A stretch of DNA of 64,000 nucleotides from the NCBI GenBank assembly GCA_964419675.1, contig CAYQPN010000003.1, positions 11,985 to 75,984 on the forward strand. Reading direction: 5' to 3'. Each line of letters opens with the position of its first letter. Within the stretch, counting starts at the first letter, position 1. The notes beneath the pieces were generated by a model that ran no database searches, was not told the DNA's origin, and saw only the letters and a list, made by a program, of their open reading frames with translations. This document shows, in pieces, positions 18,219-25,264 of the stretch. Both the position numbers and the translations under genes were made by a program. The DNA comes from an uncultured Candidatus Saccharibacteria bacterium (GTDB lineage Bacteria; Patescibacteriota; Saccharimonadia; Saccharimonadales; SZUA-47).

Positions 18219-18262
18219 GCATGGCTGGGGGGGAGGGAATTGGACCCGATGAATTACCGGTA
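18219..18262 (-). repeat. Degenerate copy of a tRNA 3' portion (T-arm, acceptor, CCA); putative distal att-like repeat
   Basis: GCATGGCTGGGGGGGAGGGAATTGGACCC... resembles the reverse-complemented 3' end of tRNA-Gln (25156-25196). Shares GCATGGCTGGGG with 25109-25120. Confidence 0.5.
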
Positions 18263-18357
18263 TTTTATTATTTCTTCCTATAGATTCAGCAATTTCTTAG
18301 ATATAATTAGACAGCTTACTAAACTAAAAACTAGGGATTAGAAAAATATTTATACTA

Positions 18358-18642
18358 ATGAGCAAAAATATAAATGCTTCACCTAAACGTAATAATAAGC
18401 TATTTGATAAGTGGTCTTTAGTACATTTAGCAACATCAATAATACTGGCCTTGATTTTACATCCCATACTCGCCTTATTAGTAGCATGGCTATGGGAACC
18501 ATTAGAGCTATTTATTCTTTCCCCAATACTCAAGAAATTCGGCATTGTTTTTGGTCATGAGACGTTAAGAAATGTAATATCTGACCTGATTTTTGATTTA
18601 CTTGGGGTGCTTGCCGGCTGGTTCATCATCACCTTGAGCTAG
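18358..18642 (+). CDS. Small membrane protein (94 aa, 3 predicted TM segments)
   Basis: Hydrophobic segments. No motif recognised. Confidence 0.45.
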   Translation: MSKNINASPKRNNKLFDKWSLVHLATSIILALILHPILALLVAWLWEPLELFILSPILKKFGIVFGHETLRNVISDLIFDLLGVLAGWFIITLS

Positions 18643-18694
18643 TTTTCGAGAAAAATTATAGCTTTTTTTACAACTTTAGTATATAGTAATAATT

Positions 18695-19492
18695 ATGGCT
18701 CAATTTACAGATTTTGAAAAACTTACTCAAAAAGAGCTACATGACGGGCATACTTATTTATTACCTCATGAGGTTATTTGGTTAGAACGAGAAGTAGCGG
18801 GTCTAATTGGTAGACAGAATTTTCATATTGGTTTGTATAGTGAAGGAATGGCTCAAAGTTCTGAAACTGATCACGATAACGCTCCAGTACAAGCTGTTGC
18901 ATCAGATAATGAAGTTCATGTTAGGGGGGGCGGAAACTGGGAAATGTACAACACGTATTCAAAGACTAGGTACAGTTTATTAGGGTACCCCGTTATCGGA
19001 CACCCTAGAGTCGTACCAGGAAGTTTAGTAGAAGTTAGGTTTAAGGGTGAGGATGGTACGGAAAGATACGAGATAGGCGGAGGAATGCTACTTGGAGAAA
19101 GGGGATTGACTGCAAATGACGATGAAGGTCTGACACCAGTAGGAACCACGCCGCTAAGCTACAAGTCTCCTATAGGGGCAGCGTTAATTGGTGCGACTGT
19201 GGGTGAGGTGGTCAAATATGCTAGGCCCGGAGGCAACCTCGAAGATACCCAACTCATGATTGAGCTTCAAGTTGTAGATCTTTTGCAAGATTCCCTTAAA
19301 ACCTTTGCACCGTTATTAGGCAAACTAGTTTTTGAAGGCGATATGAAAAACTGGCACCATAAAAACATAATCACTTCTTTGACTCCTAGTGATTTACAAG
19401 TTATTCGTGACCGAGTTACTTCTGATGAGTACCGAGAAGCTATCGACAAGAGAATAATGTTAATTACCGGAGTTAACGATAATTCAAACTGA
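18695..19492 (+). CDS. GreA/GreB C-terminal-domain protein with atypical N-terminus
   Basis: 265 aa. LSYKSPIGAALIGATVGEVVKYARPGG matches the Gre factor C-terminal domain. The N-terminal half is not a canonical coiled coil. Confidence 0.55.
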   Translation: MAQFTDFEKLTQKELHDGHTYLLPHEVIWLEREVAGLIGRQNFHIGLYSEGMAQSSETDHDNAPVQAVASDNEVHVRGGGNWEMYNTYSKTRYSLLGYPVIGHPRVVPGSLVEVRFKGEDGTERYEIGGGMLLGERGLTANDDEGLTPVGTTPLSYKSPIGAALIGATVGEVVKYARPGGNLEDTQLMIELQVVDLLQDSLKTFAPLLGKLVFEGDMKNWHHKNIITSLTPSDLQVIRDRVTSDEYREAIDKRIMLITGVNDNSN

Positions 19493-19516
19493 TTAAACAA
19501 TGTCCGAAGGTATTTT

Positions 19517-23021: not shown

Positions 23022-24058
23022 TTTAGTCCCTTCCTCTTTTTACCCGAATTTAATATTTCTTTATAACGAGATTCCTCATAAGGCAAAACCGTTGTGTTGT
23101 TTTTGTCAGAGGTATAAATTGCATCGATAAAAATCATATCTCTTAGGTGGTCTTTATGGTTACCTTCAAAATCCCCACTTAAAATTTTATCGACAAAAGA
23201 ATCCAGCTGTAGCCTAATGTCGTCGCCATTAGACTTTATATAATTACTTTCAATCATTTCTCTATTATTGTCGTATAACTCAATTTTGTCCTTGAAGATC
23301 TTAACTGCCCCGCGGGTGCCATAAATAAACAAACCTTCGTCCTTTGACGGATATATTCGAGAAAGTAACATGCTTCCAACAATTCTTCTTGCGCCTGCTG
23401 CGTATGAAAACTGTATTTTTGCAGTGTCTTCAACATCATACTTTTGGTACTTTTTGTTGTTATATCCAAGCTCTGCACTTATCTTCTCCGGAACTCCGAA
23501 ATACCAGACAATTAGATCAAGAAGATGGTAGCCCATATCTATTACTGCGCCGCCGCCTGCAAGATCTTTGGAACTTCTCCAGCCTTCACTTAAATCTGCG
23601 ATATTTAAGGTATATTCTCCGTGGACCGAAAACACTTCCCCTATATGTTCCTTATACTCAGAAAAAAGATTGTATATCTTATTGTGCTTACGCTGCACGG
23701 CTACAGTTAAGTTAACCTTGTGCTTAGCGGCAAGGTTACTAATATGAAGAGCACTTTTAAAATCTATATTAAGGGGTTTCTCTTTTAATACATGTACCCC
23801 ATTTGTTAGAAATTCAGACACAATGGAGGTGTAATACTTGTGTGGGACTGCCACAACTGCAGCGTCGGGTTTAGTGTTTTTTAACAAACTTTCTACGGTG
23901 AGAAAGAAAGGGACTTTTAGCTTTTCAGCAGTGGCTTTCGCAACAGCTTTGTCTGTATCACACACGGCAATTATTTTTACTTTTTTATTTGCCAGAGCAG
24001 CTTTTATGTGGTCTTTGCTATTCTGCTTACCCAATCCGACGAAAACCAAGTTTATCAT
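23018..24058 (-). CDS. Gfo/Idh/MocA family NAD(P)-dependent oxidoreductase
   Basis: Rossmann N-terminus MINLVFVGLGKQ..AVCD and EKP motif (VLKEKPL). Start placed at ATG 24058, preceded by an AGGAG Shine-Dalgarno, rather than the 24124 of the ORF track. 4-nt overlap with the aminotransferase gene. Confidence 0.85.
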   Translation of the reverse strand: MINLVFVGLGKQNSKDHIKAALANKKVKIIAVCDTDKAVAKATAEKLKVPFFLTVESLLKNTKPDAAVVAVPHKYYTSIVSEFLTNGVHVLKEKPLNIDFKSALHISNLAAKHKVNLTVAVQRKHNKIYNLFSEYKEHIGEVFSVHGEYTLNIADLSEGWRSSKDLAGGGAVIDMGYHLLDLIVWYFGVPEKISAELGYNNKKYQKYDVEDTAKIQFSYAAGARRIVGSMLLSRIYPSKDEGLFIYGTRGAVKIFKDKIELYDNNREMIESNYIKSNGDDIRLQLDSFVDKILSGDFEGNHKDHLRDMIFIDAIYTSDKNNTTVLPYEESRYKEILNSGKKRKGLN

Positions 24059-24199
24059 AATAGCTACTCCTATAATTTGTATAATAATAACTGATATGAC
24101 ATAATAATTCAAGTTATTTATCAAATATGAAGAAGTATTAAATTAGTTAAATTTAAAAGTACAGATTGTCGCCAAGTCAAACATATTTCCAACTAAATT

Positions 24200-25099
24200 A
24201 TGAACAAGCTAAACCCTGAAGCACAAATAGATTTAAATGACGAAGTTATCGAAAGAACCGCTAGAGAGTACGGCGTCGAGGTTGATGAGTGGCACCCTGT
24301 TACAACTGGTATAGGTAATACTGTTGCGGTACTGGGTACAGCAGAAGGTGATTTATACGCAAAGTATTACCGTTCTACGCACTCTCAAGATAGGTTAGAA
24401 AACGAGCTAGCACTGGTGTCGTCTTTACCGGACGACGTTCCGGTTCCTAGAGTCATAGAAACTCGTAGCGGTGACCAATTTACATCTATAGAATCAAATT
24501 GTAAGATGCACTTAGTGACTGTAACCAGTAAGTCTAGAGGAAATCACCCAAATTCTTACAGCCCCTCCCTTATAAGTCAACTAGCATTAGCTCACGGTAT
24601 TATGCACACTGCAGAAGTTCCCCAACCGCTTTCGGACCCTCTCAATATAGAACAAGATTATAATTATTATCTTGATGACAATAATAGGCAATTAAGAGAA
24701 GCCGACGAGCGTGCTAGATCATATCTAGATTATGTTCGAGGAATATGGCTGACATTGCCAAGTGGGTTAGTGCACCTTGATCTAGTGAGAAATAATATAC
24801 TTACGGATAAGGGGATGCTAACAGGAATAATAGACTTTGAAGATACAGCATTAGCACCTTATGTCTTTTGTTTAGCTGGAACTTTGTGGGATATTAGGCA
24901 ACAACCAGTAGAAAAAGACGGGTTAGGAAATCTATATTTGGAACGATACCAGTCAGTAAGACCATTAGAAAAAAGCGAGTTAGATCTACTCGATATAATG
25001 GTCTATTTAAGAGGATGGATTGCCCTACACGGAACTTTGCTGACAGCTGGGGATAGTAATACAGCTAAAACACAAATGAAAATTCTTGCTAACTCTTAA
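24200..25099 (+). CDS. Aminoglycoside-phosphotransferase/choline-kinase-fold kinase (APH/HSK2-like)
   Basis: 299 aa. Brenner motif LVHLDLVRNN and IIDFED. Divergent from the oxidoreductase operon. Confidence 0.7.
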   Translation: MNKLNPEAQIDLNDEVIERTAREYGVEVDEWHPVTTGIGNTVAVLGTAEGDLYAKYYRSTHSQDRLENELALVSSLPDDVPVPRVIETRSGDQFTSIESNCKMHLVTVTSKSRGNHPNSYSPSLISQLALAHGIMHTAEVPQPLSDPLNIEQDYNYYLDDNNRQLREADERARSYLDYVRGIWLTLPSGLVHLDLVRNNILTDKGMLTGIIDFEDTALAPYVFCLAGTLWDIRQQPVEKDGLGNLYLERYQSVRPLEKSELDLLDIMVYLRGWIALHGTLLTAGDSNTAKTQMKILANS

Positions 25100-25108
25100 A
25101 ATTCTGTT

Positions 25109-25131
25109 GCATGGCTGGGGAGGAGGGATTT
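25109..25131 (-). repeat. Duplicated 3' end of tRNA-Gln (20 nt identical) plus GCA; putative proximal att-like repeat
   Basis: 25112-25131 is identical to 25156-25175 (the last 20 nt of tRNA-Gln including CCA). The GCATGGCTGGGG prefix is shared with 18219-18230. Confidence 0.6.
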
Positions 25132-25264
25132 TTAACGCAATTACTCTTATTTTCTTGGCTGGGGAGGAGGGATTTGAACCCCCGAATGCCAGTACCAAAA
25201 ACTGGTGCCTTACCACTTGGCGACTCCCCACTGAAAGGCCAAGAAAAGAAGAGTAATTTGTTAA
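25132..25264. repeat. 24/25-nt inverted repeat pair bracketing tRNA-Gln
   Basis: 25132-25156 TTAACGCAATTACTCTTATTTTCTT versus the reverse complement of 25241-25264, TTAACAAATTACTCTTCTTTTCTT (2 substitutions plus a 1-nt indel). Confidence 0.7.
25156..25230 (-). tRNA. tRNA-Gln (anticodon UUG)
   Basis: Hand-folded 75-nt cloverleaf. Acceptor UGGGGAG/CUCCCCA, anticodon stem CCAGU/ACUGG with loop UUUUGGU, T-arm GGGGG-UUCAAAU-CCCUC, encoded GCCA end. Confidence 0.9.

Follow-up and report, generated by a model that had tools for sequence, protein, structure and literature searches.

The stretch of DNA analysed here (64 kb; the window) is affiliated with Saccharibacteria (TM7), and its nearest public loci are in metagenome-assembled genomes of Candidatus Saccharibacteria, with flanking proteins that are 55-78% identical. 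Next to its gene for tRNA-Gln lies a 6.9-kb block of eight accessory genes, bordered at each end by a partial copy of that tRNA. On balance, we consider this block to be probably a degenerate, integrase-less, and now immobile island that sits at a hotspot of recombination, tRNA-Gln, and is similar to a cis-mobilizable element (CIME). Its general kind, an accessory island linked to a tRNA, is known, and the locus is a multi-event one; the single integration event proposed in an earlier reading made from the letters alone (the sequence-only reading) is too simple. Saccharibacteria have very small, syntenic genomes, and a literature search found no tRNA-linked island described in them. Therefore, a defined hotspot at tRNA-Gln would show where and how these episymbionts gain accessory functions.

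tRNA-Gln and the two copies that border the gene block

Three features define the borders (here and below, "downstream" and "upstream" are used in the tRNA sense, so that downstream means lower coordinates, and tRNA positions are given in nucleotides, nt):

25156-25230, minus strand: tRNA-Gln(UUG; ttg) with encoded CCA (ARAGORN; Rfam tRNA model, 61.2 bits)
25112-25131, minus strand: near copy, an exact 20-nt match to tRNA-Gln nt 56-75, then TGC
18219-18262, minus strand: far copy, degenerate, tRNA-Gln nt 36-75, then TGC (tRNA-like part 18222-18262)

Both copies are direct repeats in the same orientation as tRNA-Gln, and they stand at the borders of the block, which the 3' end of the tRNA (25156) faces. 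The near copy lies 24 nt downstream of the intact tRNA-Gln, outside the tRNA itself. The far copy is 6.9 kb past the near copy and 53 nt behind the stop of a conserved metallopeptidase gene (Zincin_1). The sequence-only reading had described the near one as an exact 20-nt copy of the tRNA 3' end and the far one as a degenerate copy of ~40 nt, and both descriptions hold. The core of the far copy (18222-18247) is identical to the tRNA 3' end at 23 of 26 positions, and no match to a 26-mer with three or fewer mismatches turned up in 100 shuffles of the window. When two indels are allowed, the far copy aligns to tRNA nt 36-75 with identity in 32 of 41 columns; the local alignment score is 42, whereas 491 random pieces of the window average 17.7 and reach 32 at most. 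The far copy also resembles the near copy plus its spacer (score 47, against 42 for the tRNA alone), a likeness that we dismissed as too weak in AT-rich sequence.

Directly past both copies comes TGC (tRNA sense; GCA on the plus strand), and the resulting 12-mer, GCATGGCTGGGG, is found at the near and far copies and nowhere else in the window. The prefix that the sequence-only reading saw as shared by the two copies is thus present, but it is weak evidence by itself because only 3 of the 12 nt lie outside the tRNA-derived part. The brevity of this extension is the one point in favour of regarding the repeats as chance matches in intergenic DNA. That explanation is effectively refuted by the shuffles, by the margin of the far copy's score over the random pieces, and by the occurrence of the same kind of copy in five relatives. 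Both window copies carry the acceptor-stem variant of their own genome, CTCCCCA, and in the relatives both the tRNA and the copies have CGTCCTA.

Like the islands and prophages that tyrosine integrases target to tRNA genes, the block adjoins a tRNA 3' end and is bordered by direct repeats of the 3' part of the tRNA. The extents of the two repeats match the two classical crossover sublocations, and the cargo is accessory and varies between relatives. The anticodon loop and the T-loop are established as such sublocations for tRNA-targeting integrases (PMC1762012, citing Williams 2002). The far copy (nt 36-75) covers what a crossover in the anticodon loop would displace as a 3' half, and the near copy (nt 56-75) covers a T-loop-type site. 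tRNA-Gln(UUG) would then be a recombination hotspot in this lineage, with tRNA-Gln-derived sequences marking the points at which DNA is exchanged, and the 6.9 kb between the copies would be an accreted island that is now without a recombinase. The block differs from those islands in having no integrase, no clear compositional signature, and unequal repeats of which the near one is outside the tRNA, and in that fragments of the tRNA 5' end also occur upstream. Because the repeats are unequal and the near copy lies outside the tRNA, they are not one attL/attR pair of a single event. Thus, of the classic integration footprint claimed by the sequence-only reading, the bordering tRNA-3' direct repeats stand, but not the single pair of attachment sites.

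Elements that keep attL and attR after losing their integration and transfer genes are established as CIMEs (PMC6323972). The likeness is that the block has att-like repeats at both ends and no recombinase or transfer module, and that the site appears to accrete different DNA. The att-like ends of the window differ from those of CIMEs in being degenerate and unequal, and mobilisation of the block in this manner would be by analogy. We know of no partner integrative and conjugative element or integrase for Saccharibacteria.

The locus in related genomes

In eight related contigs (L001 and L168-L174), tRNA-Gln is divergent from the gene for p323, a flanking protein of 323 amino acids (aa), as it is in the window. 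Every relative whose contig reaches far enough has, ~165-190 nt downstream, a same-orientation copy of its own tRNA that runs from the T-loop to CCA (counted in five relatives). These 3' copies carry the acceptor-stem sequence of their own genome, and the window's near copy agrees with them in position and in its left boundary, in the T-loop.

The most informative comparison is between L168 and L170. From a point upstream of the tRNA through the whole 3' copy the two hardly differ, save for a swapped terminator block, and all homology ends right past ...CCTAGCCAC, the CCA end of that copy, with different genes beyond. Beyond the copy, L168 (1-5650) encodes a pyridoxal phosphate (PLP)-dependent decarboxylase, a thymidylate-synthase-like protein, an AAA_17 kinase, dCTP deaminase, QueC, and two Ham1-like proteins. 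These genes make up a cluster for nucleotide modification, another cargo at this one site, and the genes of L170 in this position are unrelated to it. A comparison of seven sites found no significant sequence sharing in the flanks beyond the 3' copies, and an apparent shared ATGCTAGT was dropped for this reason.

The gene content up to Zincin_1 varies as well. In L001 and L082, the genes from Zincin_1 to tRNA-Gln include a DEAD-box helicase, UbiA, a response regulator, and PGA_cap, and no gene of this interval is homologous to anything in the 64-kb window. The distance of Zincin_1 from a UvrD-like gene (29873 in the window) is 0.5-7.5 kb in TM7 genomes that are more distant, and the Zincin_1-to-UvrD interval spans 0.5 to 15 kb across TM7 genomes. 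The locus is a variable one, in which the tRNA-derived copy sets an exact border. The block was called accessory and tRNA-linked from its letters alone, and the comparison supports this: the interval genes of relatives differ completely, and the cassette that makes up most of the cargo recurs in other contexts (see below).

These data also bear on an explanation that does without integration, in which tRNA-Gln was locally duplicated and partly deleted, the block is inherited or shuffled chromosomal DNA, and the far copy is what remains of an old paralogue. The wide range of the Zincin_1-to-UvrD interval indicates that rearrangement is common here. Fragments of both tRNA ends are present, some in tandem, and L172 has two upstream units with identical flanks. 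Random rearrangement predicts something other than homology that stops, between close relatives, exactly at the CCA end of the 3' copy. Neither does it account for fragment boundaries at the anticodon loop and the T-loop, the known crossover sublocations, or for a cargo that is a rare, self-contained cassette met in unrelated contexts. We consider duplication and deletion unlikely, without dismissing them. We infer instead that site-specific recombination made the arrangement, and the order of events proposed above has the same standing.

Several observations concern the other side of tRNA-Gln. Between p323 and UvrD (window 26475-29845) are a phosphoribosyltransferase-like protein, p218, as well as p102 and p249, without counterpart in L001; therefore, the variable zone also reaches beyond the other side of the tRNA. 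p323 itself (25520-26491, plus strand) belongs to no Pfam family, although its homologues at E <= 1e-60 number 4051. Saccharimonadales commonly have it, and in a GTDB scan only two Saccharibacteria loci ranked above hits from Actinomycetota (~50% identical). Actinomycetota is the phylum that supplies the hosts of cultured Saccharibacteria, and the distribution hints at gene transfer between host and episymbiont.

Upstream fragments, a hairpin element, and the weighing of the proposed island

Upstream of tRNA-Gln the window holds further pieces of the tRNA, together with a structured element, which the sequence-only reading had passed over:

25368-25382, minus strand: exact 15-nt copy of the tRNA-Gln 5' end (nt 1-15)
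25280-25366, minus strand: three-hairpin element, 87 nt (covariance-model match, 101.8 bits)
25271-25279, minus strand: T-loop/T-stem fragment TCAAATCCC, tRNA nt 55-63, abutting the hairpin element (read from the sequence)
25139-25159 and 25238-25258: arms of a 21-nt inverted repeat, tRNA leader versus trailer plus CCA end, 95% complementary

The inverted repeat encloses tRNA-Gln, one of its arms being in the trailer downstream, and forms in the minimum-free-energy fold. TATAAT is also among the upstream features, and a piece of ~140 nt with TATAAT and tRNA-Gln sits between two AAATCCC motifs.

The structured element is the most unusual feature of the locus. Homologues stand beside tRNA-Gln in L001 (9499-9588), L172 (341-429, 678-748, and 843-929), L173 (290-360), and L174 (442-512). 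The elements of L173 and L174 and the third copy of L172 are more divergent, and L168 and L170 have only the first hairpin in common with it. Covariation was assessed on four elements: that of the window, that of L001, and two of those in L172. The 26 pairs include 10 with compensatory changes, all cells (100%) are paired, none of 500 shuffles was as good, and sliding the 3' partners destroys the signal. When a covariance model (R1) was run on 706 kb of TM7 sequence (the window plus 52 loci), every match lay beside tRNA-Gln, unlike the many scattered copies of a dispersed repeat such as a repetitive extragenic palindrome or a miniature inverted-repeat transposable element.

In all cases the element splits a fragment of tRNA-Gln, either in the D-loop or in the T-loop. 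Upstream units run [nt 1-16][element][nt 21-31] and then a promoter-like stretch; L172 has two, with identical flanks and different cores, and L169, L173, and L174 have one each. The window's upstream unit ends differently, with the element joining nt 1-16 to nt 55-63. Downstream units are built as [nt 43-54][element][nt 56-75], and the relatives combine terminator block and hairpin element in a mosaic fashion. Such an architecture may represent a folded site of recombination, an RNA linked to the tRNA, or the arm of small modules that integrate. The structured element beside tRNA-Gln is a candidate new RNA or recombination motif.

If it were an RNA, the repeats might themselves be functional RNA parts, with the fragments and the hairpin element co-transcribed or processed with tRNA-Gln, selection keeping the match, and the variable genes being coincidental. 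The strong covariation fits this, as do a G.U pair kept on the tRNA-sense strand, the confinement of the element to tRNA-Gln, and the way in which the copies track each genome's own acceptor stem. In the minimum-free-energy fold of the window the 5' fragment pairs with the near 3' copy, which is not independent evidence because any pair of tRNA halves would pair. An RNA role is harder to reconcile with a far copy that is 6.9 kb away, degenerate, and without an adjoining hairpin element, or with the downstream unit in most relatives, which lies past an intrinsic terminator. Rfam has no match to the element: between 17 and 27 kb only the tRNA model is hit at E <= 1, and the whole window at gathering scores yields tRNAs and an L10 leader, nothing else. 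Since the exact break in homology at the copy would also be left unexplained, we regard this as improbable.

As a recombination site, the element would have parallels in the folded single-strand sites of integrons (attC) and CTX phage (attP): in each case structure is kept while sequence varies, and the site is at the boundary of exchangeable DNA. Unlike them, the hairpin element stands among tRNA fragments at a single locus, where neither an integron integrase nor an Xer-type context is present; a role in recombination would thus be by analogy.

Returning to the island at a tRNA-Gln hotspot, a number of observations weigh against it. The repeats depart from the form expected of an island, where the tRNA's own 3' end serves as the proximal repeat and the two are of equal extent: one covers nt 56-75, the other nt 36-75, and the near copy is apart from the tRNA, so at least two events or a later rearrangement are required. 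The near-copy architecture is present in every relative that reaches it and therefore predates this cargo or is independent of it, and is no by-product of it. Simple integration does not predict that tRNA fragments flank the tRNA on either side, with a conserved structured element breaking them up. The family scan of the block proteins found no integrase, excisionase, or transfer gene, and Pfam, NCBIfam, and PADLOC scans found no recombinase among the eight cargo proteins, as the sequence-only reading had said of the integrase. Compositionally, the block departs little from its surroundings: its GC content of 0.397 equals the window mean, its tetranucleotide distance (z = 1.68) ranks 4 of 58, and its codon usage ranks 6 of 46 (z ~1.6) with normal GC at third codon positions. 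No relative in the collections searched is close enough to show an empty site (flanking proteins of the closest ones are ~65-75% identical, and the best flank identities are 74% for p323 and 75% for Zincin_1), and none of those compared has an uninterrupted junction of metallopeptidase and tRNA-Gln, since all hold other genes there. Viral contigs were searched with both types of 3' copy (the window's and the relatives'), with the hairpin element, and for relatives of a 390-aa cargo protein, without a match. The sequence-only reading had looked to such a junction, to a deviating composition, and to copies of the repeat on phage contigs; of these, the first and the third were not found, and the deviation in composition is mild. 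The native-like composition and the lack of mobility genes in the block count in favour of local duplication.

Scanning the whole window crudely for recombinase motifs produced two leads, neither with a hit to a recombinase family: 61008-62465 matches only the Sortase family, no recombinase family, and 59711-60787 has no family match at all. At 35000-43000, GC content rises to 0.44-0.46 and the tetranucleotide deviation is the strongest in the window (z ~3), well above that of the island.

The cargo and its possible function

The eight genes between the copies are:

18358-18642, plus strand: 94-aa protein from the list of open reading frames, no family match (no Pfam, NCBIfam, or PADLOC hit), putatively a small membrane protein in the sequence-only reading
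18695-19492, plus strand: 265-aa protein with a GreA/GreB C-terminal domain, Rnk/Gre-like (PF01272, E = 3e-8)
19517-20128, minus strand: P-loop nucleotide-kinase-like protein, AAA_17/AAA_18 (Pfam, NCBIfam, and PADLOC hits)
20100-20606, minus strand: NUDIX hydrolase (PF00293, E = 1.5e-15)
20624-21796, minus strand: 390-aa protein of a rare family (no Pfam hit)
21777-23021, minus strand: DegT/DnrJ/EryC1 PLP-dependent aminotransferase (PF01041, E = 1.4e-70)
23018-24124, minus strand: Gfo/Idh/MocA NAD-dependent oxidoreductase (Pfam hits)
24200-25099, plus strand: APH-fold kinase, divergent from the operon (PF01636, E = 1e-19)

The minus-strand operon thus runs Gfo/Idh/MocA, DegT, 390-aa protein, NUDIX, P-loop kinase, and family hits agree with the Gre-domain protein, five-gene operon, and APH-fold kinase that had been read from the translations. 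In a promoter and terminator scan, shuffles did as well as the real sequence.

The cargo is a rare, portable cassette, accessory and patchy in its distribution. L161 has it in the same order (APH, again divergent, then Gfo-DegT-unknown-NUDIX-kinase), with 55-82% amino acid identity and other flanks, and also encodes a CYTH gene and a second NUDIX gene beside it. In L163 and L164 the cassette includes a Gre-like homologue in the same operon, and tRNA-Cys is just downstream; no tRNA-Cys fragments were found flanking the L163 cassette. In L165-L167 it sits amid genes for type IV secretion, an IS200-type transposase (Y1_Tnp), and Fic.

The 390-aa protein is the least familiar member. A word-indexed search returned 17 homologues, and a set of 1.84 billion proteins contains 153 representative clusters of the family. 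Its motifs HDxxDH and DERRR are invariant. The AlphaFold2 model of the 390-aa protein is of high confidence (pLDDT 91), and a fold search of the PDB with that model gave no match at E <= 0.001. Elsewhere the domain is fused to a P-loop kinase (AAA_17/18), NUDIX, or CYTH, the same families that are its gene neighbours in the window and in L161, and these fusions fit a nucleotide-centred pathway.

By analogy, the cassette would most likely make or handle a 3-keto and then a 3-amino nucleotide or nucleotide-sugar. The PDB relatives of the DegT protein are sugar and aminocyclitol aminotransferases. The Gfo/Idh/MocA protein has NCBIfam hits, all under cut-off, that include UDP-N-acetylglucosamine 3-dehydrogenase and inositol 2-dehydrogenase, and its PDB hits are Gfo/Idh/MocA dehydrogenases, one of them a glucuronide 3-dehydrogenase. 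A pathway of a UDP-sugar 3-dehydrogenase and an aminotransferase, which we take to be of the WbpB/WbpE-like kind, fits the family hits equally well.

The closest functional parallels are the pur/ata/cst/adg aminonucleoside clusters, which the cargo resembles in having Gfo/Idh/MocA, a DegT-type aminotransferase, and NUDIX in one operon together with nucleotide kinases. In those clusters Pur10 is an NAD-dependent ATP dehydrogenase, and Pur4 and Pur7 carry out further steps of the aminonucleoside pathway (PMC11641026, PMC9239236). For Pur10, PMC11641026 notes only a similarity to RifL. The adgB-D genes make 3'-amino-3'-deoxyguanosine, the triphosphate of which interrupts transcription (PMC11641026, PMC9239236). 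The cargo differs from the pur clusters in lacking a Pur3-type phosphatase, Pur6, and an exporter; no phosphatase family was detected in it, the 390-aa protein having neither a Pfam hit nor a PDB fold match. Conversely, its Gre-like factor and HDxxDH protein have no counterpart in the pur/ata/cst/adg clusters. The roles (Pur10 dehydrogenase, Pur4 aminotransferase, Pur7 NUDIX) were compared with the cargo by protein family, and Pur10 is presumably of the Gfo/Idh/MocA family.

The 265-aa Gre-like protein has weak PDB matches to Rnk (3bmb, E = 0.024) and to a Gre-family structure (2pn0, E = 0.35). It is 35% identical to the Gre-like protein of L163 (7160-7723; E = 5e-21), and the word-indexed search for its homologues returned the query alone. 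Because a Gre-like factor is tied to the cassette in two independent contexts, the association suggests that it would protect RNA polymerase from a chain terminator. One could go further and imagine the hairpin element and the tRNA-Gln fragments as working parts of an undescribed cassette-exchange system of Saccharibacteria at tRNA-Gln. The folded RNA or single-stranded DNA would be a recombination or processing site that marks the exact nucleotide of the swap, with the recombinase encoded elsewhere. One cargo of such a system would be a pathway to a 3'-amino chain-terminating nucleotide, with the Gre-like factor protecting the RNA polymerase of the producer. We give this composite picture a slim chance. 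PADLOC gave only weak hints on the cargo. A rare nucleotide-handling cassette that includes a protein without a PDB fold match and is genetically linked to a Gre-like factor is a lead for a new small-molecule or defence function. As a last observation on the Gre/Rnk-like proteins, those of the window and L163 have the motif SSETDHDNAP in common, and both are linked to a Gfo-DegT-NUDIX cassette in unrelated contexts.

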